Shown here in pieces: positions 6,106-36,470 of a stretch of 64,000 nucleotides of DNA. This stretch comes from a virus. The position numbers were made by a program, and so were the translations under genes. A model generated the notes under the pieces. That model had not been told where the DNA came from, did no database searches, and worked only from the letters and a program-made list of their open reading frames with translations. Position 1 is the stretch's first letter, and each line of letters starts with the position of its first letter. The DNA is taken from UHGV virus genome UHGV-0084588, one strand, 5' to 3'.

Positions 6106-7626
6106 ATGAAGAACGTTGATGTTGCAGTAATTTACACGGACGGTAGCCATTTGACCTCCCCGCTCGGTACAGGGGCGGGGATTCATGGATACTTATTTAA
6201 TCGTGAAGCGATTGAGGATGGTCGGGTTTACCGCCATCCCACTATTCCAGAGGGGATTACGACGTCAGGATACCGCCAGATAAACAAGGATGAAAAACTT
6301 CCGCCTTTACCAGAAACCGTGGAGTTTATTGACGGCGTTGTTCCTGTACCAAAAATGTCACACTCCGACGTTGCAGAACTCGTGGCTTTCCTGACCGTCT
6401 TCGAACACGCCCCCTTCGTTGCCAAAAACTACGTTATCTATATCGACGCATCTTACGTTGTCAACACGTATAACGACTGGATCGATGGTTGGGCAGCACG
6501 TGGTTGGCGTCGTGCGGACGGTACACCTATTGCGAATCTGGAATTAATCCAACGGATGTGGGAGGTTAAACATCGCTTAAAGAAAGAAGGGAAAGGTGTT
6601 CGTGTCCTTAAAATTAAAGGCCACTCTGGACGTTATGGAAACGAACGCGCAGACGAGTTAGCGCGGAAAGGCTCAATTATCTCTGCCCGAGGGGAGGGGT
6701 TAGACTATACACCGTATTGGTCAAAAGACGAGCTGCCTGAGGAAGAACAGCAACCGGAAGTTGTTGGTGAGGGTGTCAATTTGTCCGCTTTCCCCGATAT
6801 CTGTGTTACGAAGTTCTGTTACCCGATGGTGAACGAACCCCATCCCACTGTTACAGTTAACGGTAATAAACTTTATTACATGTTCGGTGGAAACCACGCA
6901 AAACAGAAGGACGATATCGTCTTCGTTGGTAAGTACATTCCAGATGCACAATTCTGCGTAATGTTTACCAAAGAACCGTGGGATAACGTATACGAGTTGG
7001 TAAATACCCATTCTGCGAAAGCGTGGGAAGGGGTGCCCCGTTTACGTCAATTTGATCCTATCGCCGTTGTTTTTAACTTATTCGTAAAGCGTAAGAAGTT
7101 CGCAGAAGCCGCTGCTAACGGCATTCCTATCGATCGGATGCATTTTAGCGAAGACAAAAACCTGTGGATGTTTGAAGATCTTTCGATTACACGAATTCTT
7201 CGTCCTGCGCTATTATCTTATCGTTGTATTGCGATTCGTGATGAGCTTGCAGGTTGGTTACGCGATGCCATGGAAGGGAAAAACTCAGTAGTGTTGAATG
7301 ACATTACTGACGTACTTTACGATGAGAAAGGTAAGCCGAAGAAAGACATTTATCGTAACGTAGATAAAGGTTTTGACGTAACCATCCAGATCCCTGGTAG
7401 TAAAAACAAGGTTAAAGCTATCCTTACTCGAGGTATCGACATACCGACGCGTACGGAAATCAACCGTATCAAAGAACCGGAAGGGCGGTTCTACGTGGCT
7501 GTACGTCGTCCAGAACGGCAGTATATCGAATACGCGTTGGTTTATATCGGGGAAAAATATCATGGTTTGTGGTGCGGCTATTATTCAAACAAACGAATAT
7601 TGACGGATAAGGAGCTTGAATGCTGA
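6106..7626 (+). CDS. RNase HI domain fused to a roughly 310-aa C-terminal region of unknown function
   Basis: N-terminal 190 aa carry RNase HI motifs (VAVIYTDGS, SHSDVAELVAF, YIDASYVVNTYNDWIDGWAARGWRRADGTPIAN, KGHSGRYGNERADELARKG) closely matching E. coli RnhA; the rest has no recognisable motif. Confidence 0.7.
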   Translation: MKNVDVAVIYTDGSHLTSPLGTGAGIHGYLFNREAIEDGRVYRHPTIPEGITTSGYRQINKDEKLPPLPETVEFIDGVVPVPKMSHSDVAELVAFLTVFEHAPFVAKNYVIYIDASYVVNTYNDWIDGWAARGWRRADGTPIANLELIQRMWEVKHRLKKEGKGVRVLKIKGHSGRYGNERADELARKGSIISARGEGLDYTPYWSKDELPEEEQQPEVVGEGVNLSAFPDICVTKFCYPMVNEPHPTVTVNGNKLYYMFGGNHAKQKDDIVFVGKYIPDAQFCVMFTKEPWDNVYELVNTHSAKAWEGVPRLRQFDPIAVVFNLFVKRKKFAEAAANGIPIDRMHFSEDKNLWMFEDLSITRILRPALLSYRCIAIRDELAGWLRDAMEGKNSVVLNDITDVLYDEKGKPKKDIYRNVDKGFDVTIQIPGSKNKVKAILTRGIDIPTRTEINRIKEPEGRFYVAVRRPERQYIEYALVYIGEKYHGLWCGYYSNKRILTDKELEC

Positions 7627-8288
7627 TCGTTTATAGTGAGGTCTTGTCAAAAGCCCCTCGGTTTTTACAAACTCACTTTATGTATAACGCACGGCAGTAT
7701 TGGGGCTTTAAAGCCCCTTACTCCGAAGATTGGGAAGTTGTGGAAAAGTTAGCATTTGTGTTTTCTCTTTCGTTGTTGTGGGAGATCATTGCACTATACA
7801 ACGCGGGTTGTGATATCCCTGAGAACGGCTTTTTCCAACAACACCTATTCCAAAAATTCACAGCATCGATAGAAAATCATGAAGTACGCAAGGAGTGTAT
7901 CGGCTACGCAGAGCATTCTGAAGAATTGAGAAAGATTTCCAAATTAGTTATCACGCGGGCATGGGCTGAATTCGAAACTTACCCCGAAAAAATAATTTGG
8001 TTTAATCGTGAACAGTTTATTAAAGAGGCAGTCAGTCAACATCCCGTTCGATTAATCGTGTTAAAGCCGTCCGATCTTGCCTTACGCCGTGTCTATTCGT
8101 TTCCAGAGGAAATCATTTTTTCCGCAGGAACAGCAGATTATGGTATTTTTAAGCAAGGTGATTCTTGGATTCTTCCGCACGACTTAGACCAGTATTTGCT
8201 CAATAGCGATCAAATACATTCGGGTTATGACTCACAGGTGAAGGAGTTTACAGTCGATCCTTTTTTCGCTAAAAATATTCTTAGATAG
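7620..8288 (+). CDS. hypothetical protein
   Basis: 222-aa ORF whose start overlaps the upstream stop; operon-like packing. Confidence 0.5.
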   Translation: MLIVYSEVLSKAPRFLQTHFMYNARQYWGFKAPYSEDWEVVEKLAFVFSLSLLWEIIALYNAGCDIPENGFFQQHLFQKFTASIENHEVRKECIGYAEHSEELRKISKLVITRAWAEFETYPEKIIWFNREQFIKEAVSQHPVRLIVLKPSDLALRRVYSFPEEIIFSAGTADYGIFKQGDSWILPHDLDQYLLNSDQIHSGYDSQVKEFTVDPFFAKNILR

Positions 8289-9063: not shown

Positions 9064-9606
9064 ATGAAAATACTTATCGATTTCTCACTCAGCGAGTCAC
9101 GGGACAAATTAAACAAGGTGTTAAGTGAAATGCGTAGTCGTGTTGCGTTTGAATTACACGATGCAATAGCAGTGCATGAGAACAAGATTTCTGAAGAACA
9201 CGATGGTGCTGATATTACTATCCTGGATTCAGAAGAGATGGTGAATAACCTCGTTGAGCAGTTAGTGATAAAAATCAGTTCGGCCATGACATACCCGCAT
9301 TTAGTGCAGGTAACTGATCCCGATACCGATATTCGCCTGATTCTTGAGAAAGCCTTTCTACATGCCGCGCATTACTTACAGAATAATGCTCCAGATACCC
9401 TCGACGAAGTGTACGTCGCAATATTGCAGCGCCAATCTTCAACGACGGATATAATAGACACAACATGTTGGAGCGATATTCTTACCAACGAAACGATGTC
9501 CCGTATCCGGGATATTTTCCTTGAGACACTCGGGTTAGTTGAGAAAATCTGTCATGCTGAGCTCATCTACCTATCGTCAAAATACGGACAACCTAAAGGA
9601 GTATAA
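9064..9606 (+). CDS. hypothetical protein
   Basis: 180-aa ORF tightly packed after the upstream gene. Confidence 0.5.
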   Translation: MKILIDFSLSESRDKLNKVLSEMRSRVAFELHDAIAVHENKISEEHDGADITILDSEEMVNNLVEQLVIKISSAMTYPHLVQVTDPDTDIRLILEKAFLHAAHYLQNNAPDTLDEVYVAILQRQSSTTDIIDTTCWSDILTNETMSRIRDIFLETLGLVEKICHAELIYLSSKYGQPKGV

Positions 9607-10620: not shown

Positions 10621-10626
10621 CACCCA

Positions 10627-10657
10627 CCCTAGCTTCGGCTAGGGTAACTTTATTTTT
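10627..10657 (+). terminator. intrinsic terminator
   Basis: CCCTAGC-ttcg-GCTAGGG hairpin followed by TAACTTTATTTTT. Confidence 0.5.
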
Positions 10658-10679
10658 AACCATTTTAGGAGAATATGCC

Positions 10680-11606
10680 ATGTATTTGTACAAAAGTAAA
10701 AAAGTAAAAGGTATTAAAGACTGCCTTAGACAAATGGGGAGTCAGCATCTAGAAAATGTCATGGAAGAAAATCAAACAAAAGAAAATCCCGTCTCGAAGT
10801 GGATAAAAAAGAATCGTAAGCATTTAACTAATGCCTTTATACCCTACGACGCTGAGTTAGGCCTCAAAGATCCCCGTTCTCTTCACGCTCAAACATTGGC
10901 AATTGGATGGCTATACGGTGGTGCTTCCTTAATATCCGATCGAGCACTTAGAGAACTTGTTTTCGAGACTGAGATGCCCAGTAAATTCCCTGAAGAGTGG
11001 TTAGACTTTATACCTACTTGGACTGTAGCAATCGATGTAGGTAAAGAAGATGAGACTTTCTTTCTCGGTTATCGAAAAAATAGGAATAGAAGGTTTATTA
11101 TAATCGCTACAAATACTGATTACGGGTTAACAGAAGGCGTTACCACGATCGCCACCTGCTCGTTAGAGATATGTAGTGTTGGAAACGGGCTTGTTGAAAT
11201 CGATTATACGACTGGCGTACAGACCGAACAAGAGAAGACGTTATGGTTATCACTGGCTAAGACCGCCATATCGTTGATATTTCTCTGTACGCTAATCCCG
11301 CCTAATCTCAGAGGGTCTTTCAATGACATTAAGTTCAAAGAAATCAAAAAGAATGGTAGCATAAGTCACGAAATCAAACCTCGTGAACGTGACGTTAAAA
11401 TAGACATCACGCCAGGACAAGTGAAATATCTAAAGGGATTTAACACCGACTTGAAAACCATGGAAGGTATCAAACACGCCAAGGCTGCACATATTCGTCG
11501 CGCACACTGGCGCAGATATTGGGTCGGTCCAAGAGATGGGGAAAGGAAGAGAAAACTTTACTGGATTCCGCCTACATTTGTCCGTGGCTACGTACCCCAC
11601 AATTAA
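10680..11606 (+). CDS. hypothetical protein, paralog family with C-terminal AHIRRAHWRRYW motif
   Basis: 308-aa ORF; RBS TAGGAGAAT; C-terminus KAAHIRRAHWRRYWVGP...WIPPTFVRGY. Confidence 0.55.
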   Translation: MYLYKSKKVKGIKDCLRQMGSQHLENVMEENQTKENPVSKWIKKNRKHLTNAFIPYDAELGLKDPRSLHAQTLAIGWLYGGASLISDRALRELVFETEMPSKFPEEWLDFIPTWTVAIDVGKEDETFFLGYRKNRNRRFIIIATNTDYGLTEGVTTIATCSLEICSVGNGLVEIDYTTGVQTEQEKTLWLSLAKTAISLIFLCTLIPPNLRGSFNDIKFKEIKKNGSISHEIKPRERDVKIDITPGQVKYLKGFNTDLKTMEGIKHAKAAHIRRAHWRRYWVGPRDGERKRKLYWIPPTFVRGYVPHN

Positions 11607-11631
11607 GCTAAAAGTGTTTAGGAGCATTAAA

Positions 11632-12531
11632 ATGATAGCGAATAATAGACTTTACGGGAAAGCGCTAAGACGCATGAGCGAACAGATAGAAAAAGCGCAC
11701 CAAACAATTCACGGATTAGACCAGTGCCGTTTTATTCGGTTCATTAACGAGCATAAACGACAAATACCCGTAACGTTTATGCCAGTTAAAGATCCGACTT
11801 ATCGAGAGTATGGTGTTACAGAACAGATTCCTAGACTGATTAAACAGTCCCTGGGTCTAGGGTGGCAATACGCTGCTGTTGAAATCATCTCGGATGAAGA
11901 ACTGATGGCGCTCTTAGCAAAAACTGAGAGACTAAAAAATATCCCGTACTTCTGGATAGAAACCATCCCTTCATTTACTTTCTCGGTTACCGTAAATCTC
12001 GACGAAAGCCCAATCACGTTATTTATCGGAAGACGTCTTTACGAAGGCGAAGAAGTTCTCTTTGTGATGTCATGCGAAGAACGTGAAGAATCGGTATACA
12101 TGGAGTTTGAGATTTACAAAATCGATAAAAGCGAAGATGATTTCGTCGAGCTAAAACCGCTCCTTACTTCGGTTAAAGAGAATCAACGACTACTCGACGC
12201 CGTCTACATCGGGCTATATCTTTCGTCACGAATTAAACGTACTGAACGTGAGAAGAAAGAATTTCGTGGAAGAACGATTCGTTATGTTCCTGATACAGAG
12301 ATTCGCCCACGTAGTGAAGCAGTCGTTTTAGACGTAAGTCCGGTACAATGGGAAGATATAGAGCAGCAACGCAAGGAAGGACACGAGGTTTGTTTGGCAA
12401 TTTATTGCGCAGCACATATCCGTCGTGCTCATTGGAAGCGTGTATGGTGTGGTAAAATGTCAGAAATGCGCTGGCGCGAATGGCGATGGATAGCGCCAAG
12501 CTACATCTCTGGATTTTATCGTGGGAAATAA
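11632..12531 (+). CDS. hypothetical protein, paralog of the upstream gene
   Basis: ATG at 11632 after TAGGAGCATTAAA preferred over the longer track ORF; C-terminus CAAHIRRAHWKRVWCG...WIAPSYISGFY. Confidence 0.55.
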   Translation: MIANNRLYGKALRRMSEQIEKAHQTIHGLDQCRFIRFINEHKRQIPVTFMPVKDPTYREYGVTEQIPRLIKQSLGLGWQYAAVEIISDEELMALLAKTERLKNIPYFWIETIPSFTFSVTVNLDESPITLFIGRRLYEGEEVLFVMSCEEREESVYMEFEIYKIDKSEDDFVELKPLLTSVKENQRLLDAVYIGLYLSSRIKRTEREKKEFRGRTIRYVPDTEIRPRSEAVVLDVSPVQWEDIEQQRKEGHEVCLAIYCAAHIRRAHWKRVWCGKMSEMRWREWRWIAPSYISGFYRGK

Positions 12532-12539
12532 ATAGTTTA

Positions 12540-12586
12540 CCCCTAGACCGTGTGGTCTAGGGGTAGCTTTACTTTTTTATTTTTTG
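12540..12586. terminator. intrinsic terminator at the end of the plus-strand gene block
   Basis: CCCCTAGACC-gtgt-GGTCTAGGGG hairpin followed by a long T-tract that runs into the 3' end of the minus-strand gene. Confidence 0.55.
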
Positions 12587-13745: not shown

Positions 13746-15242
13746 ATGGCAGGCCCAACTAAACAAGTTATCGGTGAAGTAATTCGTCCACGTTTTAACG
13801 TTTACACCATCATGGATCATGCCTTAGGTAACTACGAAAAAGGTGAAGATGGTTTGTACTACCTTAACGGTGGTTTTGCCCACATCATGGGTTTCGCAGG
13901 TCGCGGTAACACTTTTAAATCCACCTTGTTAGATTTCTGTATTTTCCAAATCCTGCAACGTTATAAAGCAGAGTGGGGTTCTAAGTACGATACAGAAGTG
14001 TCAGCCGCCCTCGATCGTTTAGAAACTGGGTACATCTCTGCCATGAACGCTAACGGTATCGACGACGGAACGTCCGTACTGGAGCTTATCCACGAAGGTC
14101 GATATAACCTGGTCGGTTCTGACGTAATGCCTGGGGAACAGTATTACAGTGATTATATTCGCGATGAAGTTGAAAAACGCTTCAAGCAGTATATGTCTGG
14201 TAAAACCCGCGTAACGCCGTTCCCCGATCCGGTTCGTCGTAAGTTAAAAGAAATCCTGGACCCCTGGCTTTATTCTATCGATTCCCTGTCAGAGTGGCAT
14301 TCCAGTTCGCTGGAAGACAAACACGCAAAAACGGATATTGGGGATTCTGATCAGAACATCCTCAACGCCCACGATGCCCTGCAAAAGTCGAACATGATGA
14401 GCCGCTGGCCGTCTGCGTTTGCACGCGGTGGTTTTTACATGGGCTTCGTGGCACAGATGGCCGATGACTCTGGGAAAGCGATGGCAGGTGGCCGTCAGGC
14501 ACAAAAAGCAAATGCGAAAATTCTTGACGATGCCAACGACGATTTAAAATTCGCAGGTATTCCTCGCCGTCAGCTTAGCTTTTTAACAAACTCTTTTATC
14601 GTCGCGACGAAATCAGGGGAACTGAAGAAAGACCAGAGCTATAACGCGCAGACGGGTGTTAACGAAGAACTTTATCCGACGTCACGCTCTAAGGCGATGA
14701 ATGCTTCGGTAAACGACTTGAAGATTATCACCTTTACTCAGTATCGTGCGAAGGGTGGTCACACTGGTGTGAAATTCCAGATGATCTTCTCTCAGGAAAT
14801 GGGTCTGTTATATCACCTGAGCCTGTGGCACTATTTAAGCGACACACTGAAGAAGTCAGACTTTGGTTTCACGTCAAGCGGTAGTGGCGGCTCCATCAAA
14901 GAACTGGACATTCTACCTGGTGTGAAATTCCAACGCACGACAATCCGTGATATGATTTCTGATAACGCACGCTTACGTCGCGCTTTAGAAATCACGGCGG
15001 CAATCGCGTATATGCAAAACAACTACCATCGTCTTGAAATGAAGTATCATCTCAGCATGGGTGAGATTTACAAACTGATTGACGAGAAGTGGGACTGGAA
15101 TGAAATTCTGGACAACACGGTAGAATACTGGATGTTTAAAGACCAGGAAACCAAAGGCGGTAAACGCACACTGACTGCACGTACTATTCTGGGTATGGCT
15201 GTCGATGGACTAGAACCGAAGTTCCTGACGAAAAAGAAATAA
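13746..15242 (+). CDS. possible RecA/UvsX-family recombinase
   Basis: Non-canonical Walker A-like GRGNTFKST, similar to the UvsX-type motif as I recall it, and Walker B-like LYSIDSLSE; RBS GGAG 8 nt upstream. Confidence 0.4.
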   Translation: MAGPTKQVIGEVIRPRFNVYTIMDHALGNYEKGEDGLYYLNGGFAHIMGFAGRGNTFKSTLLDFCIFQILQRYKAEWGSKYDTEVSAALDRLETGYISAMNANGIDDGTSVLELIHEGRYNLVGSDVMPGEQYYSDYIRDEVEKRFKQYMSGKTRVTPFPDPVRRKLKEILDPWLYSIDSLSEWHSSSLEDKHAKTDIGDSDQNILNAHDALQKSNMMSRWPSAFARGGFYMGFVAQMADDSGKAMAGGRQAQKANAKILDDANDDLKFAGIPRRQLSFLTNSFIVATKSGELKKDQSYNAQTGVNEELYPTSRSKAMNASVNDLKIITFTQYRAKGGHTGVKFQMIFSQEMGLLYHLSLWHYLSDTLKKSDFGFTSSGSGGSIKELDILPGVKFQRTTIRDMISDNARLRRALEITAAIAYMQNNYHRLEMKYHLSMGEIYKLIDEKWDWNEILDNTVEYWMFKDQETKGGKRTLTARTILGMAVDGLEPKFLTKKK

Positions 15243-17437: not shown

Positions 17438-17986
17438 ATGTTAACAGGAATAATAACTCGTTTTAAACAACGGTTAGAGAATAATCGTTTAAAAGCCCTC
17501 AGAGAGTCTCTGAAGCAGGAGTTCCATAAGAACACCCACAACCCCTATGTCAGAGTCTTTACCGGCTTACAATTGCTTACGTTGCCTTTAAACATAAATG
17601 AAGAACCCTTTCGCCCCAGCCTTCGTGGCTTCCTCGAATTGCGTGTTAATAACATTGATCTTGTTTATCAACGTTTAGCATTTCTCATTAACGAATACCA
17701 ACGAGCAATTAACAGGAGTTCAATTGAATGGCTACCATTGCCCGATGCTTTAAATAAACGAAACGACTTGGCAGAATACCGATGGCTAGACACTTATTTT
17801 GGGACGTCCAGTCCTGAGGTTGCCGCTTATAAATTGGGTAAATTACTCGCGCTAATTCAACCCTATGAATCGGCGTTCCTTAAACCGGAGTCCGACGAAG
17901 ACAAAGCGTTGGTAAACCAAACAGCGCATTTATTCCGGGAGTTGGAAACACTGATCGAACACTACCTTTTAGAACGCCCTATTTAA
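17438..17986 (+). CDS. hypothetical protein
   Basis: 182-aa ORF; RBS TAGGAGTGAATTATG. Confidence 0.5.
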   Translation: MLTGIITRFKQRLENNRLKALRESLKQEFHKNTHNPYVRVFTGLQLLTLPLNINEEPFRPSLRGFLELRVNNIDLVYQRLAFLINEYQRAINRSSIEWLPLPDALNKRNDLAEYRWLDTYFGTSSPEVAAYKLGKLLALIQPYESAFLKPESDEDKALVNQTAHLFRELETLIEHYLLERPI

Positions 17987-29345: not shown

Positions 29346-32300
29346 TTACGCCGATTTACGACTAACGTCGAGTTGTGGCGCTGGTTGGGTTATTGACACG
29401 TTACGTGACGCCGAACCCGGAGCGGTTGACGCAGGGTTAGCCGGTCCGTTTTGCATAGCCTGTGGTCGCTGACGAAGAATTGTTACAATCTCTTTCAGGT
29501 AGCCCGCAGACTCTTTTGCAACCGCCAGCTGCTGTACGCTGATCGGATCACCGCTGTTCACTGTAGAGCCGGTCTGTGCATCGGACGTTACTGTTGGTGC
29601 AGGGCGGACTGATTTCTCCATCTGCTGTCTAGCACCTTCTTTTACTTTAGCAACATCCTCTTCGGCCAGGCCGTCAGCACGAGCGTTTTGACCCACCGTA
29701 TCTACAACAACTGACGCATCACTCGGTGTAACGTCGCCGCCAGGGCTCGGCACAGCCGGACCACCGCCCGTCGCAGCTTTAATGTCATCGGCCCCCATTG
29801 CACCTTTATCTGCTAAGGCTGCATCACGATTCGCCTCGTTCGCAGCTGGCAGGTTATCTGCCGGGCCTGTGATAGACGGATCGTTAGCAGCGCCCGCAGC
29901 GATGGCTGGGGATGACGGCATTGGCGTTACGCCTGTCGTCAAGTCTTTCACCGATGCCTGATTAGCCGCAATTGCGTTTGTTCCTACTGCACCAATCTTA
30001 CCACCCATGATGTTGAGCACTTCATCCAAACTACGCAATTTTCCATTCTTGTAGAAAATTGTGCTGTTTGCCGCGATTTGATCGGCCGATGCACCACGCG
30101 ATGACGGACCGTTCGGATCACGCTTCCATTCTTGCAGGAATTTCTTACCGCCACCTTGTCCTAAGAAGTGGTAGAGGTAAACTGCTGCACCAGGAGGATC
30201 GATGCCACCTAAATCCTTTCTGGCTTTCTCGATATTGTCACGAATATGGCGGACACCAAGCAGAGTATTCGCCCACGGGTCATACTGGTCGGTTTGCGGG
30301 ATACCGTAACGTCTAGCGTAAGCTTTCATCTGCGCACCCCAGGTATCGTTGATGAACTGGAACAAGCCAGCCGCAGAACTTCCTTTAGCTTTGATGCCGT
30401 ATCTAAGTCCTGATTCTGCTTGTGCCATTCCCAGAGCTAACGCTGGGGGAACACCCATCATCTTCGCTACATCTGTAATCAGTGCCGCAACCGCATTCAG
30501 GTTAGGCTTCAATCCGTCGCCCAACGTTGAAATTGGATACTTAGCCGCTAACGTTTTATAATCACCGTCTTGCATCTCGCCAAGCTTCACACCGAAGTTA
30601 CCGGTACTAAACGCGGCGTAATTCTTAGCTCCCATCTGACCATAAGCACCAGCCAAATCGTTTGGCGTGCCGTAATTCCCACCGTCATTCGCTGCCGGTT
30701 GAAGCAGATCGCGATAAGAGGAGGAAGTATTCATCTGTTGCCGAGGTGGTTGGTCCTTCTCGTCATCGGTCAAGAACATCTGAGTCGCACGATCTTTTCG
30801 CTGCCAGTTCACACGGAAACCAGCAGAAGGCGTAGCACGCAGCGTTTTACGTACTGCCAAATCAGCTTCCTTAGACAGTTCTTTCAGATTCTCTAACTCC
30901 GTCGCAACTGAACCAGCGTCAGTGTTAGCATCACCCCCTAACGGGTTAAACGGTACCTCCCACACCGATTGGCGAATACCCCCTTTCAGGTTGTATGCAC
31001 CACGCATCATCAGTGCGATTTCATACAAGAACCCGCCTGTAACGCGTAGGTCCATCGGATCGGCAGCAGGGACATAACGTTTCACTCCAACCACGTACGT
31101 CATGAAGACAGGTAAGAAGCGGTTATAGAACCAGTTCTTGTACCGATCTTCTTTTGGCCCACCAATAGCGTCAGGTGCAATCACCGCAATCGCACGTTTC
31201 CAGTCTCCTTTATACGTACAACTTTTCACATCAGTGTCTTGCAACACTTGACGTTCTAGGAGCGTATAGAGGTTACGGGTTGTTTGAGTAATGCTCACAG
31301 CACCATAAGCTTTCAACCTTACAGATTCCAAATCACGGAGATCGGTTTCTTTAGGTAAGCTTCTCCAGTCAACTTGAACCTGAACTTGTTCGGTGCCGTC
31401 TTCCCAACCTTCAACCTTTGCAACCTCTTTGTTGCGTTCCGCATCCGCTTGAGCCAACGCTTGGGACGATTCCGCCACAGAAGCAACTTTGTGTCCTTCG
31501 GCCACGCCGCCTGTAGCATTAACATCCTTACGTTTTTCATCACGACGCATGTTAATCGAACGAAGCACGCGTTCTTGTGCTTCAACGACTTCTTCACCTG
31601 ACAAAAACTCGGCCGGGGTAAACGTTACGAAATCCCACGCTTTAGAGAACCAACCTTGGTTAACCTTGCGGGGGTCTTCTAATGCACGGAATGCAGGTGC
31701 GTCTTTCGACATCTTCATTTTGTTAAAGATGTTCAACATGTCTGCTTTCGACACTTTCGCTGGATTACCGACGTCAGCTAACGCGATATCGTTATCCATC
31801 GATTTCAGTGCCGTAATCCAACGTAAGTAAATAGGCACAAAACGTTGTAGCATAAACGCACTAAACGCCAGCATTTCGCCTTTGTCTTCTACGTTAGTAC
31901 CAAACCCTTCGGCCAGTTTCTTCACGTCGTCACCGGACAAACCACGCAGCTGCGCTTGACCGTTCTCTGTATAAGAGATATACGGTTTCAAGTTGTCTTC
32001 TAAATAACGTGCTTTTGCACCGTCGTCGGAAGACCATTCATCGTGGTCTCTAAAACCGTACTGCGCCAATCGCATGTTATCCAGATACTGGGCATTTACA
32101 CGGGTTGCAGTTTTATACGCAAACCAAGACAGCGCAGCGCCTGCAGCGACCAAGCCAATAATCGGCCAGCCAACCGCAGTTACCACTGCAGATGCCGCTG
32201 TCGCGACAGCACTCACCGCAGGGACAGCCAAACGGGTCACAGCAAACTTACCAACGTTCCACAACGCTTTGCCTGCAAATCCAACCGGCTTGAAGATTCC

Positions 32301-35300
32301 CCATTTTGCAACTTTACCTAAGATTGAACCCACTGTGCCCAAAATACTCACAATCGGTCCTACCAACGGCAGTCCTTTAAGGAAATCCATTACCCCACGT
32401 TTACCACCTTTCTTCTCAGCCTCTTTCTTAGCCTTTTCCTCTTCCTTAGAACGACGACGGCGTCGGAAGAACTGGAAGTAATCGCGTTTTTCATCACTGG
32501 CAGGCGGCTTATTGCGTTGGCCGAACTTACTGAACATAGTTCTTAACAAACCATCCGAAGCACCTGCTTTTTCCGCAGAATCACGCATGGTGTTAAACCA
32601 TGACATTTCCTGAAGATTAACCATTCGGTTCAGGCGTTCCAGTAAAGCTGACCCAACGCTACGGGCTTTCTGTTTCCCTTTATTAATCACACGACCAGCG
32701 CTATCCATTACGGTGTCTAAGTCTTCTTTTGCCGCATCGACGATACGTGTTTTAGACACCTTGCCTCTTGCGTAGATGTGTTGACGGTAAAACTCAGCAA
32801 CATCGTCATCGCGTCCTGCTAAACGACTCTCCATTCGATAACGTGTGCCAATATCGAAACGTGGATCACGGAAAGTATCGACCATATCGCTTGCACGACC
32901 ACGGAAACGATCAAACCAACCACGTGCGGCACCGCCCCAACGAGAAAGACGATCGCCTACCGCACCGCGATAACGGGACATTCTGTCACGCATCCGACCA
33001 CGCCAATCCCGGAACCCCTGAAAATGTTCACGGAACCCTTCACGTATGTCTTTAGCACGTTGGAATAATCCTTTAACTGAGCTGGCTCCCGTATTCCGTT
33101 CCATCTGTTCTGTCCAGGTATCATCTTCTGGTTCACCTGGCAATCTCCGGTTAAGGAGTTTGTAGATACGGATTAAGATGTGGTTAGTTTTACGGCCGTT
33201 CGACCATGAGAACACACTAAACCCACCACCAGAACCCCCTTCCTTACGGTTCTGCCACCAACGTGTCAGAGGGTTATCAGAAGCCAACTCTTTGAGCTTC
33301 TCAAACCCGCGTTTTGCATTGTTCCACAAACGTGCTGGCATTCCCGTTACACGGGAAATCATGCTTTGTAAACGGGTTTTCTCTGCGCCCTCTGGAACCT
33401 CATTTAACCACTCACGTGCTTTCTCGAACAACGAAGCCGCTTTAGGTGAAATGAAGCCTAAAAGTTTCTTCGGTAAAGTCACAGCTTTGTTTACCGCCGT
33501 TCCTGCTTTCCCAGAAATGTACTGGAAAAGCGCTTGAACTTTACCGCCTTTGTAGAATCGCAGTTTACCTGCGGCAGCCAAATCAGCAGCAGATAAGATT
33601 AAATTACCCGCTTCATCGACAATATCACGTCCCAGTTTAATATCGTCGAGGGTTTTAAGTTGAATCAGCTTCTCAGTTTTCGGGTCAGCCTGGTAATATT
33701 CCCCAGCTTCTAAACGACTTCCTTGTAATACGACGTTGCCACGTTCATCGTAAATATCACGAACACCTAAAACGCCTTTACCGAAAGCTACAGCAGAATT
33801 CCAACCTGTCGATAGAGTACCTGTTACTAACCCTTTCAGTCGGCTAAATACACCGGGTCCTTCGGAGGAGCCGCCTGAGAATTTCCCACGGATAAAACCA
33901 CCTAAAGCCTGCAGACGATCTTTCCCACGTAGGAACAGATTCTTACCAAAACGCCCTACACCTGAACCGGTATCCCAAAGCACCCCAGCCCAACGGCGTA
34001 ACAAGCCTGTCTCGCCTAGCACAATACGTTTGCGTTTACGACGACGTTTACGACCCGAGTCACTCGAACTTTCAGTTTCGTCACCGTCATCACGACTACC
34101 GCCTAAACTGGCTAGGAGAATACCTTCCTCATCCATGTTCTTAACGTGTTTGAGGATATCTTGCACTGTGCTAGATTCGGGCTGTTTACGTACAGCATCA
34201 ATCAAACGGTCGAATTGCTGTTCCAACCCGGCGTTCGTATCTGGACGACTGCTTAATAGTTCAACAAAGTTAGTGGATTTCTCTCCATAAAGTACCGCAG
34301 CGAGTTGACGTGCGCTTAAACCGCGACCACGACCACCTTTTCCACCGCCACGCACATTGGACAGTTCTTTGTCTTCAAAGCTCGGCTCTGCACCTGCACC
34401 CATCCGACGCAAGTAATCACCCAGCGCAGAACCGTTTTGCAATTTACGCTGAATCTCTTGCTCACGGGTTAACGAACGTCCAGAGCGGGTCTTACCCATC
34501 GACAGGTCATTAAATAACGTATAGGGATCGTTAATGTCCTTATCGACCTCGAAAATGTCTTTCTTCGCATCGTATTTAAAAATACCGGAATCACGAAGTG
34601 CATTCTCGCCGTAAATCACAGACGCAGCATCAACAGTGTCCTGACGTGCGCGAATCGTTGACTGGATAGCGGCGATTTTGTTTGAAATCGCGTTGCTCAA
34701 TTCATGGTGTCCACCAACCAGTTCCGCAGAACGGGCTTCTAAAACACCCTGAATCGCTTCCACAGCGTTTGCGTTCATGTACCGATACATGTGCATCGGG
34801 TCTTTCAATAAAGACCCTACATCGAACGCTTTCCCTTCCGAGGCACGGGATTCGATGTAGTCTGCTAACGCCTGACGTGTTTTCCGATCGAGCGTTTTAT
34901 CTTTATCGATAAAGTCGACTGTATCGTTGATGTAAGTCTGTAAACGTTTACGCTGATCGTCATTAGCAACCGCTTTACGAACACGATTACCAATAACTTT
35001 ACGATCCACCATACCGCGTGTGGTCAGGTCATAAACCTGATCGTGGTGTTCACCATATCCACGACGAATAGATTTGTTAATCTCGGACAGTAACGTCGGA
35101 ATAACTTCAGTGATGCTGAGGTAAGCTTTACGATCGAATTTCGCCGCCGCAGAAAGAGATTCCGCAGAGCGATCGTCTAATGCTAACGTTTCGCGACGTA
35201 GCGGGTTAACCAATCCCAATTCGTGCATTAGTCGAAACAGATCAGCTAACGGGCCGCTTGTTTCTCCTGCTATTGCTGAGTTAGAAATAGACGATAAATT

Positions 35301-36470
35301 TCCAAAACCATACTTCGCCAACTGAAGGCGTTTCATGACTTCTGGATTTTTCTCCAACTCGCCACGAGTCCAGTTTTGTAGACGTTCGATCTGGGGTTGT
35401 AAGAGCCGTTTTGCTAACCAACCACCTGCAAAACCTGCCGCTTTATTACGCGAGTTTGTATTACGACGGTCAGGAGACAACGATGAGCTGTCCGACATGT
35501 CAAAGTCGTCTTCCTGGGCCATCCCTAGAACTTGTTCTAGAATCCCACGACCATCGCTAAAGACGTTCGAGATTTTCTTCTTCGCGTTCTCACGAATCTG
35601 GCTAATGAAATTGTCTGCGTAATGTAAGGGGTTCATCCACTCCGCAGCTTTACGTTTTACATTAGCCCAACGAATTTCAGAAAACTCTTCCTTCGCGTAG
35701 TCTGGCAGTGCTGTGTTCTTAACGATGGCTTCTAATGCCGGTGTATTGCGTGCAAACTCGTCTTGTTTGAGTTTCGCAATATCCTGCAAAGCAAACAATG
35801 TCCGGTATTGCAGCTCTAACTGCTTACGCTGAACATTCAACAACACGCCCCGACTTAAGCTAGTCGTTAAGTTGACGTCTTTTGCAATACCGATTACTGT
35901 CTGGAACAGTGCGTCGGACTTCATGTCCTTAATCGTGTCACGCAAGCGGTCTTCAACCATCCCTTCTTGCGTTTCACGTTGCTGGTCCGCCGTTTGCGGT
36001 GCACCTGAGAACACGCTGTCCAGCTCACGATCCATCAACGCTTGTTTAGGATCGTAATTCCCATAGTCGATTTGATCGTTACGTGCCCACTTGTCGATTT
36101 TCCGTGTTACGGATTCCGGTAAATACCGTTTCAGTGTTGGGCCTAACTGTCTCGCTTGCATCTTAACGACGCGAGACGTCTTTTCAATCTCGTCTTTCGT
36201 ATGGGCCAGAATGTCTTGACCTGCAGCTTTAACGTTTTGATAGCCTTCGTAGGCTTCTGCCGCAGGTTTAGGCATCCCTTTTAAAATAACCTGATCACGT
36301 TTGTTTTCGGGCCAGATAGTCGACAACGCCGACTTACGGGCAGCACGAAATGTGTCCATGACCGGGTTACGCGATTGGTCTTGTTGACGAGGGGGCTCAT
36401 CAAAATCGTCCCAGTCGTCCATGTTATCAAGATCGATTTCATCGAAATCATCTTTACCTTTTTTAGCCAT
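29346..36470 (-). CDS. giant virion protein (2374 aa) with C-terminal lytic transglycosylase domain
   Basis: Acidic N-terminus (DDFDEIDLDNMDDWDDFDE); long hydrophobic Ala/Val/Gly-rich membrane-like region; C-terminal region with AQAESGL, AAGLFQF and YLYHFLGQGG resembling the SLT signature; overall like phiKZ gp181-type proteins. Confidence 0.8.
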   Translation of the reverse strand: MAKKGKDDFDEIDLDNMDDWDDFDEPPRQQDQSRNPVMDTFRAARKSALSTIWPENKRDQVILKGMPKPAAEAYEGYQNVKAAGQDILAHTKDEIEKTSRVVKMQARQLGPTLKRYLPESVTRKIDKWARNDQIDYGNYDPKQALMDRELDSVFSGAPQTADQQRETQEGMVEDRLRDTIKDMKSDALFQTVIGIAKDVNLTTSLSRGVLLNVQRKQLELQYRTLFALQDIAKLKQDEFARNTPALEAIVKNTALPDYAKEEFSEIRWANVKRKAAEWMNPLHYADNFISQIRENAKKKISNVFSDGRGILEQVLGMAQEDDFDMSDSSSLSPDRRNTNSRNKAAGFAGGWLAKRLLQPQIERLQNWTRGELEKNPEVMKRLQLAKYGFGNLSSISNSAIAGETSGPLADLFRLMHELGLVNPLRRETLALDDRSAESLSAAAKFDRKAYLSITEVIPTLLSEINKSIRRGYGEHHDQVYDLTTRGMVDRKVIGNRVRKAVANDDQRKRLQTYINDTVDFIDKDKTLDRKTRQALADYIESRASEGKAFDVGSLLKDPMHMYRYMNANAVEAIQGVLEARSAELVGGHHELSNAISNKIAAIQSTIRARQDTVDAASVIYGENALRDSGIFKYDAKKDIFEVDKDINDPYTLFNDLSMGKTRSGRSLTREQEIQRKLQNGSALGDYLRRMGAGAEPSFEDKELSNVRGGGKGGRGRGLSARQLAAVLYGEKSTNFVELLSSRPDTNAGLEQQFDRLIDAVRKQPESSTVQDILKHVKNMDEEGILLASLGGSRDDGDETESSSDSGRKRRRKRKRIVLGETGLLRRWAGVLWDTGSGVGRFGKNLFLRGKDRLQALGGFIRGKFSGGSSEGPGVFSRLKGLVTGTLSTGWNSAVAFGKGVLGVRDIYDERGNVVLQGSRLEAGEYYQADPKTEKLIQLKTLDDIKLGRDIVDEAGNLILSAADLAAAGKLRFYKGGKVQALFQYISGKAGTAVNKAVTLPKKLLGFISPKAASLFEKAREWLNEVPEGAEKTRLQSMISRVTGMPARLWNNAKRGFEKLKELASDNPLTRWWQNRKEGGSGGGFSVFSWSNGRKTNHILIRIYKLLNRRLPGEPEDDTWTEQMERNTGASSVKGLFQRAKDIREGFREHFQGFRDWRGRMRDRMSRYRGAVGDRLSRWGGAARGWFDRFRGRASDMVDTFRDPRFDIGTRYRMESRLAGRDDDVAEFYRQHIYARGKVSKTRIVDAAKEDLDTVMDSAGRVINKGKQKARSVGSALLERLNRMVNLQEMSWFNTMRDSAEKAGASDGLLRTMFSKFGQRNKPPASDEKRDYFQFFRRRRRSKEEEKAKKEAEKKGGKRGVMDFLKGLPLVGPIVSILGTVGSILGKVAKWGIFKPVGFAGKALWNVGKFAVTRLAVPAVSAVATAASAVVTAVGWPIIGLVAAGAALSWFAYKTATRVNAQYLDNMRLAQYGFRDHDEWSSDDGAKARYLEDNLKPYISYTENGQAQLRGLSGDDVKKLAEGFGTNVEDKGEMLAFSAFMLQRFVPIYLRWITALKSMDNDIALADVGNPAKVSKADMLNIFNKMKMSKDAPAFRALEDPRKVNQGWFSKAWDFVTFTPAEFLSGEEVVEAQERVLRSINMRRDEKRKDVNATGGVAEGHKVASVAESSQALAQADAERNKEVAKVEGWEDGTEQVQVQVDWRSLPKETDLRDLESVRLKAYGAVSITQTTRNLYTLLERQVLQDTDVKSCTYKGDWKRAIAVIAPDAIGGPKEDRYKNWFYNRFLPVFMTYVVGVKRYVPAADPMDLRVTGGFLYEIALMMRGAYNLKGGIRQSVWEVPFNPLGGDANTDAGSVATELENLKELSKEADLAVRKTLRATPSAGFRVNWQRKDRATQMFLTDDEKDQPPRQQMNTSSSYRDLLQPAANDGGNYGTPNDLAGAYGQMGAKNYAAFSTGNFGVKLGEMQDGDYKTLAAKYPISTLGDGLKPNLNAVAALITDVAKMMGVPPALALGMAQAESGLRYGIKAKGSSAAGLFQFINDTWGAQMKAYARRYGIPQTDQYDPWANTLLGVRHIRDNIEKARKDLGGIDPPGAAVYLYHFLGQGGGKKFLQEWKRDPNGPSSRGASADQIAANSTIFYKNGKLRSLDEVLNIMGGKIGAVGTNAIAANQASVKDLTTGVTPMPSSPAIAAGAANDPSITGPADNLPAANEANRDAALADKGAMGADDIKAATGGGPAVPSPGGDVTPSDASVVVDTVGQNARADGLAEEDVAKVKEGARQQMEKSVRPAPTVTSDAQTGSTVNSGDPISVQQLAVAKESAGYLKEIVTILRQRPQAMQNGPANPASTAPGSASRNVSITQPAPQLDVSRKSA

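Follow-up and report, generated by a model that had tools for sequence, protein, structure and literature searches.

A tandem pair of AcrVA2-like genes in a phiKZ-like jumbo phage genome

A stretch of 64,000 nucleotides from the virus genome UHGV-0084588, referred to here at its full length as the window, carries two adjacent open reading frames (ORFs) of 308 and 299 amino acids whose products share an arginine- and tryptophan-rich C-terminal block. What are these two proteins, and what might the shared block do? A preliminary description of the locus had placed the pair at 10680-12531, where both ORFs do lie, on the + strand (ORF1, 10680-11606; ORF2, 11632-12531), and the peptides it quoted match the translations exactly. 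It took the block to be the only part that the two proteins retain in common, proposed that it is a functional module attached to variable N-terminal domains, and recognised it from no described family. Herein we find, with very little doubt, that ORF1 and ORF2 are diverged tandem members of the AcrVA2/FinQ family (PF26125); the shared tail is a known signature motif of that family, not a discovery.

The two proteins are paralogs over their full length, the C-terminal block is their best conserved part, and the similarity is well beyond chance. BLASTP aligned ORF1 residues 40-304 with ORF2 at an expectation value (E) of 3e-20 and an overall identity of 24%, and the alignment is thus significant. 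By ORF1 region, identity is 17% over residues 1-65, 21% over 66-214, 24% over 215-265 and 46% over 266-304, and the block taken alone gave 18 identities in 36 positions (E=7e-13), so that it is both real and conspicuous, as had been described. It is not all that has been kept, however: with the block removed, ORF1 residues 40-132 still aligned to ORF2 (E=7e-12), and both proteins matched the same PHROG family, phrog_6160, whose function is unannotated, over nearly their full length (E=9e-38 and 3e-18). The block is encoded by ORF1 codons 266-304 (11475-11591, +) and ORF2 codons 257-295 (12400-12516, +), and the last 45 residues contain 12 lysines and arginines with 3 tryptophans in ORF1, and 10 with 5 in ORF2. 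A six-frame scan of the 64-kb window found no third in-frame copy of the motif.

To which family does the pair belong? Precomputed annotations (E<=1e-5) assign the label PF26125, 'AcrVA2-like', to two database proteins, P0004 (100% identity to ORF2) and P0001 (90% identity to ORF1), and both tandem genes in four related Logan contigs (L003-L006) carry the same label. The motif therefore does fall within a described domain, Pfam PF26125, represented by crystal structures 7CI1 and 7CI2, if one from an uncommon family. When both ORFs were scanned locally with Pfam, NCBIfam and PADLOC, nothing significant was returned; we regard the weak matches to AAA_19 (E=0.088) and Csx19 (E=0.008) as noise. 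The local Pfam scan is uninformative for PF26125, as it matched none of 10 typical family members and the local copy appears to be without the model; for newer accessions, a blank local Pfam scan should not be equated with the absence of a Pfam family.

Sequence searches of increasing depth led to the same protein. A profile of eight sequences from the jumbo-phage clade had AcrVA2 (7CI1/7CI2) as its sole match in the PDB, with E=0.003 and on the motif, where the aligned AcrVA2 stretch reads ...PHIRRGHWHGYWQG...RVRWQPAVFV. Word-indexed protein searches recovered only 3-6 relatives, even with a profile, and an exhaustive hidden Markov model (HMM) search was required. Seeded from the window clade, this search identified 2,709 representative clusters (defined at 50% identity) at E<=1e-3, including 714 at E<=1e-10. 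These homologues are mostly 300-350 amino acids in length, and the match spans from approximately residue 50-75 to the C-terminus. When 145 of the matched sequences were made into a profile, it aligned with residues 8-319 of the 323 in 7ci1_A (E=6.4e-47).

Structure prediction is in agreement with this assignment. The AlphaFold2 (AF2) model of ORF1 built from a deep alignment is helical in its N-terminal part, continues through a middle alpha/beta domain and a linker predicted with low confidence (approximately residues 250-270), and closes with a C-terminal module of four strands (residues 271-273, 276-282, 290-296 and 299-301). AcrVA2 has been described as having three domains, the C-terminal one loosely attached and flexible, and the layout of the model matches this description; the fold is the same. 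An earlier AF2 model, made from a seven-sequence alignment, had a predicted local distance difference test (pLDDT) score of 60, yet already pointed to AcrVA2. Structural comparison placed ORF1 in the AcrVA2 fold, and found no similarity to ribonuclease (RNase) or toxin folds (RelE-like, HEPN and others) for either the whole protein or the C-terminal module; AcrVA2 is the only known structural relative of this fold.

The residues on which AcrVA2 depends are also retained. Only three columns of the 145-sequence alignment are invariant, H271, R273 and H276 in ORF1 numbering, and those conserved at 90% or more include W77, P104, P112, W277, W281, G283, W295 and P298. The invariant residues lie in an HIRRAHW stretch that is present in both ORF1 (11490-11510, +) and ORF2 (12415-12435, +; H262, R264 and H267), and they align with H286, R288 and H291 of AcrVA2, allowing for the +1 offset of the PDB chain. 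Substitution of any of these three by alanine abolishes AcrVA2 activity with Cas12a binding retained, and W79A and D89A lead to a partial loss of activity (Marino et al., bioRxiv 10.1101/2022.11.29.518452). The equivalents of the latter two are W77 (codon 10908-10910, +) and D87 in ORF1 and W78 (11863, +) and D88 (11893, +) in ORF2, with an identical 10-residue spacing; W77 is found in 141 and D87 in 104 of the 145 relatives. All five residues defined by mutagenesis are thus kept in both ORFs. The same C-terminal HxR motif is kept across approximately 1,800 orthologues, FinQ included, and the N-terminal side diverges (Marino et al.).

In what kind of genome are these genes found? Among the products encoded in the window are a tail sheath, a terminase, virion proteins and split RNA-polymerase beta-like subunits of the phiKZ type; the phage belongs with the phiKZ-like jumbo phages, and its relatives include SPN3US and Asesino, which forms a nucleus. 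When 3.5 kb was compared by megablast with 50,697 phage records, none matched, and hence no close cultured relative is available. The nearest cultured relatives, whose genes are 21-32% identical to the window gene, are jumbo phages of approximately 240 kb that infect Erwinia (Asesino, ChrisDB and the pEa_SNUABM series) or Salmonella and E. coli (the SPN3US species). Asesino is a chimallivirus shown by experiment to form a nucleus, to which its UvsX protein, gp238, localises (Asesino paper); gp238 is the orthologue of the window gene at 13746-15242. Its phrog_6160 member, gp235, is not mentioned in that paper. Like the window genes, the phrog_6160 orthologues in Asesino (gp235), EC001 (MGA_211), ChrisDB and the pEa_SNUABM series match over their full length and occupy the syntenic position, but each is a single-copy gene, annotated in every case as 'hypothetical protein'. 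In Asesino and EC001 this copy sits between a block of small genes and a convergent 251-amino acid gene, and its orthologue in the window is ORF1, which scored 125 and 117 bits against gp235 and MGA_211, respectively, versus 83 and 88 for ORF2.

The tandem arrangement is confined to the clade of the window, which comprises Logan contigs L003-L006, IMG/VR contigs L009-L012 and a 'plasmid' of Enterobacter ludwigii. The last of these (L007, NZ_CP134650.1, E. ludwigii 51A:C 'plasmid unnamed1') is a circular, non-mobilizable record of 222,441 bp whose gene order matches that of the window from the exonuclease and RNase H genes through UvsX and further, at 58-97% amino acid identity. Evidently it is a jumbo-phage genome whose sequence was assembled along with that of a bacterial isolate and then entered the database as a plasmid, and it suggests Enterobacter as the host genus of the window's phage. 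Among the IMG/VR contigs, L009 (IMGVR_UViG_3300029126_000001, 225,000 bp) is 99% identical to ORF1 and has at least one substitution in ORF2 (CSAH for CAAH); this near-identical genome could provide the complete genome context of the window.

What, then, might the pair do? AcrVA2, from a Moraxella bovoculi prophage, silences a chosen protein by destroying its mRNA during translation, and its homologue FinQ, a fertility-inhibition protein with the same C-terminal HxR motif and a divergent N-terminus, reduces the mRNA of a rival element (Marino et al., bioRxiv 10.1101/2022.11.29.518452). By analogy with AcrVA2, we think it reasonably probable that ORF1 and ORF2 are two effectors with a common C-terminal silencing module and different recognition parts, directed at targets other than Cas12a; it is this silencing model that rests on the analogy, whereas family membership was tested directly. 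One particular polypeptide, probably a nascent chain of a host or rival-element protein, would be recognised by the helical N-terminal and middle alpha/beta parts, and the flexible four-strand module with its invariant H-x-R-x-x-H-W would then trigger translation-dependent loss of the mRNA encoding that target. Candidates for the effector step are ribosome-associated cleavage, or stalling followed by polarity. Marino et al. raised an analogy to ribosome-dependent mRNA endonucleases of the RelE/YoeB/HigB type and to HEPN RNases, which is a mechanistic one only and lies in the putative His/Arg active site and the translation-dependent loss of mRNA. As the effector module is common to both paralogs but identity elsewhere is only 17-24%, the two would be expected to silence two different targets, and the recognition part may be swapped among phages by recombination with the effector module held constant.

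The likeness of the pair to AcrVA2 extends to family membership by profile, a length of approximately 300-320 amino acids, the order of parts (helical N-terminus, alpha/beta middle, flexible linker and four-strand C-terminal module) and the equivalents of W79, D89, H286, R288 and H291. Unlike AcrVA2, which is found in a Moraxella prophage, the window genes form a tandem pair in a lytic jumbo phage of Enterobacterales, have arginine or lysine at the second histidine of an 'HWH' sequence, and are 11-18% identical to AcrVA2 outside the motif; moreover, the PHROG scan of the window neighbours turned up no adjacent acrVA1 or aca-type gene. With FinQ the pair would share, going by the literature, one effector module and a non-CRISPR target, but FinQ is borne on IncI/F-like E. 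coli plasmids and acts on F transfer genes. Across 72,556 plasmids searched by tblastn with ORF1 and a family consensus, no E. coli IncI or F-like plasmid was matched. The sole match to ORF1 was the E. ludwigii 'plasmid', and the consensus search identified family members on 30 records of diverse plasmids and on 32 phage records, all annotated as hypothetical.

Given that the pair has the family, the fold and all five mutagenesis-defined residues of AcrVA2, it could be asked whether ORF1 and ORF2 are true anti-CRISPRs against Cas12a. The hosts of the relatives are Erwinia, Salmonella, E. coli and probably Enterobacter, and we know of no type V-A systems in these hosts. The family as a whole points the same way, its members being found mostly in hosts without Cas12a; AcrVA2 orthologues occur largely on mobile elements, including 'megaphages', in such hosts (Marino et al.). 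In addition, Asesino forms a nucleus, a structure that according to the literature keeps CRISPR-Cas from degrading phage DNA, and in their putative recognition regions the two proteins share only 11-18% identity with AcrVA2. Host range, the formation of a nucleus by relatives and a recognition part so unlike that of AcrVA2 make Cas12a a very unlikely target, and we consider an anti-Cas12a role for the pair highly improbable.

Several observations weigh against the silencing model itself. The mRNA-loss mechanism has been shown for AcrVA2 only, in a source that is a preprint (bioRxiv 10.1101/2022.11.29.518452), and the jumbo-phage members are read from sequence; 'effector module' is a label drawn from genetics rather than an activity that has been demonstrated. 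The term 'recognition part' rests on the Cas12a peptide co-crystallised with AcrVA2 (7CI2), which contacts E98, D129 and D195, residues whose segment of AcrVA2 aligns with the variable region; this contact is not needed for inhibition in vivo (Marino et al.), and the site for the N-terminal LSKT segment of Cas12a is a predicted one. Outside the motif the proteins share no more than 11-18% identity with AcrVA2, and the Foldseek template modelling (TM) score against AcrVA2 is a moderate 0.45, which is probably due to a differing orientation of the domains. The 'HWH' histidine that is present in 132 of the 145 relatives, and that adjoins the essential residues, is replaced by arginine in ORF1 (residue 278, 11511-11513) and lysine in ORF2 (residue 269), and the corresponding position in Asesino and EC001 is glutamine or cysteine; if this histidine matters, the clade may work differently. 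Finally, the pair sits among replication and recombination genes, with no obvious anti-defence island.

Some of the same properties would suit a different mechanism, in which the C-terminal block binds RNA, DNA or the ribosome as a general tail and the proteins act, for example, through FinQ-like premature transcription termination and polarity or through regulation of the phage's own genes, with no mRNA decay directed by a nascent chain. The strongly basic and aromatic composition of the tail and the nucleic-acid enzymes encoded nearby (an exonuclease, RNase H and UvsX) are consistent with this possibility. In addition, the reduction of F transfer gene mRNA that is reported for FinQ and the mRNA-destroying step of AcrVA2 would both leave room for it. 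However, what is invariant in the family is two histidines and one arginine, not a general basic patch, and AcrVA2 mutants in the motif bind their target yet lose their effect, suggesting that the motif forms a specific site for activity or docking. Regulation of the phage's own genes is further argued against by SPN3US, which is without the gene, such that the basic gene-expression programme does not need it. We therefore regard this mechanism as unlikely, though worth keeping in mind, and favour a silencing module of the AcrVA2 type.

Is the gene part of the core machinery of the phage? The copy number at this site is zero in SPN3US, one in EC001 and Asesino, and two in the window. EC001 and SPN3US differ by a clean indel of approximately 987 bp that holds the gene (EC001, L002, 5749-6735; SPN3US, L008, JN641803, 186719-186782), with flanks that are 97-98.6% identical on either side, and the EC001 insertion includes the upstream hairpin and ribosome-binding site of the gene. 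From this clean difference it follows that the gene is a dispensable accessory, gained or lost as a cassette. A core structural role, or a core role in replication or recombination, would fit the constant syntenic position near RNase H and a UvsX-like recombinase, which Asesino, EC001, the window and the E. ludwigii record have in common. It is hard to reconcile with the presence or absence of the gene between phages that are 97-99% identical, with an identity of 29-31% to the Asesino and EC001 genes, versus 72-82% for the 251-amino acid gene and UvsX, and with the lack of any structural or replication annotation in PHROG; such a role is quite improbable.

How the variable part has changed can be seen by comparing contig L003 with the E. 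ludwigii phage. Their DNA is approximately 97-99% identical over 11 kb except for codons 1 to approximately 215 of the ORF1 homologue, where the exchanged stretch, equivalent to approximately 10660-11320 of the window, has a DNA identity of 53-87%. In the 3' third of the same gene, which encodes the linker and motif module, DNA identity is 95-98%, and protein identity by successive region is 75%, 52%, 96% and 100%. The number of synonymous substitutions per site (dS) is 1.16 in the swapped part versus 0.21 in the rest, which points to recombinational exchange of an old allele rather than local hypermutation or rapid evolution in situ. Within the exchanged patch the window is closer to L003 (85-97%) than it is in the flanks. 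ORF1 codons 66-214 (10875-11321, +), which encode the first part of the middle alpha/beta domain and hold W77 and D87, are the most variable, recombining part among close relatives. Thus the modular idea put forward in the preliminary description stands in that a conserved C-terminal module follows a variable front, in keeping with the AcrVA2/FinQ architecture and with this pattern of recombination, but the front parts are divergent homologues of the same fold and not unrelated domains.

Using the NG86 method, we found no gene-wide signal of positive selection: the ratio of nonsynonymous to synonymous substitution rates (dN/dS, omega) was 0.09-0.26, with dS saturated for ORF2. Ratios in this range mean that both genes are under purifying selection and hence functional. 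ORF2 is 64% identical between the window and L003, versus 85-97% for the neighbouring genes, and is an added second paralog that is diverging faster in the clade of the window. The selection data also bear on whether the resemblance between ORF1 and ORF2 might be a product of chance or composition, or the ORFs not genes at all. All that speaks for this is the low overall identity of 24%, and against it are the ORF1-ORF2 alignment (E=3e-20), the 2,709 homologous clusters, good ribosome-binding sites, the dN/dS values and a confident fold prediction; we give it next to no credence.

The layout of the locus is that of a compact pair. A terminator-like GC hairpin followed by a T-run, found by sequence scan just 5' of ORF1 (10626-10645, +), is the end of the preceding gene block. 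ORF1 has an AGGAG ribosome-binding site (10667-10671, +) whose last base is followed 8 nt downstream by the ATG at 10680, and ORF2 has its own AGGAG (11620-11624, +), with the ATG at 11632 beginning 7 nt downstream. The longest frame for ORF2 begins at 11536, which adds 96 nt and overlaps ORF1 by 71 nt. Since the ATG at 11632 has its own AGGAG and lies 25 nt past the ORF1 stop, and since the independently called P0004 is 100% identical to ORF2 over 299 amino acids from this position, 11632 is almost certainly the true start and the extension an artefact of ORF calling. A second terminator-like hairpin, bidirectional and of 13 pairs (12537-12566; scan), lies between ORF2 and the convergent 251-amino acid gene. 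Flanked by two such hairpins, the pair looks like a self-contained two-gene unit; the genes up- and downstream of it encode an exonuclease, an RNase H-family protein and a UvsX-like recombinase by PHROG scan.

Other features of the window and of more distant phages were also noted. Three small genes of unassigned function (7620-8288, 9064-9606 and 17438-17986) are 58%, 59-60% and 69% identical at the amino acid level to L003/L007, versus 85-97% for their neighbours, and may be further mosaic or fast-evolving accessory genes. The largest ORF in the window, of 2,374 amino acids (29346-36470, -), lies between the split RNA-polymerase beta-like genes and a 723-amino acid phrog_3181 protein of unannotated function, which has a weaker match to a virion structural protein family. 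The C-terminal AcrVA2-type motif is also present in two jumbo phages outside the SPN3US/Asesino group, Erwinia phage RisingSun (MF459646.1, 129022-129123) and Salmonella phage SA002 (MN445183.1, 68209-68307). The gene over this stretch in RisingSun is labelled 'putative mycothiosynthase', probably in error.

What does the pair mean for the family? AcrVA2 is so far the only protein of a bacterial system for which removal of a specific mRNA upon recognition of the encoded protein has been reported. The family is very large, with approximately 2,700 clusters at 50% identity in our search and approximately 1,800 orthologues in the preprint, and almost none of its members lie beside Cas12a; what the others target is a question that the jumbo-phage genes make approachable. 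In the literature on AcrVA2-like genes in jumbo phages or chimalliviruses we found only a mention, in one sentence, of AcrVA2-like proteins in huge phages (Al-Shayeb et al. 2020), and no link to chimalliviruses. The tandem pair, the copy-number polymorphism of zero, one or two, and the natural swap of the recognition part are therefore modestly new, and genes of the window type now labelled 'hypothetical protein' can be re-annotated as AcrVA2-like. Three handles on function are available: EC001 and SPN3US, with and without the gene, are a natural pair of nearly identical, culturable phages; the tandem genes combine the same effector motif with different recognition parts; and the recognition part alone has been swapped between genomes that are 97-99% identical.

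More tentatively, and with less confidence than we place in the silencing model, the pair may represent a retargetable silencing toolkit of a nucleus-forming phage, consisting of two cytoplasmic AcrVA2-type proteins, each of which would eliminate the mRNA of a different host-defence or rival-element protein, other than Cas12a, on recognising its nascent chain. New specificities would come from recombination between phages that replaces the N-terminal and middle recognition cassette and leaves the H-x-R-x-x-H module as it is. In such a phage transcription would take place inside the nucleus and translation outside it, and a mechanism that requires the two to be coupled, for instance stalling with subsequent polarity, could spare phage messages. 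If this is true, the first targets of the AcrVA2 family other than Cas12a would be directly accessible through the EC001/SPN3US pair and through the cassette swap that separates L003 from the E. ludwigii phage.

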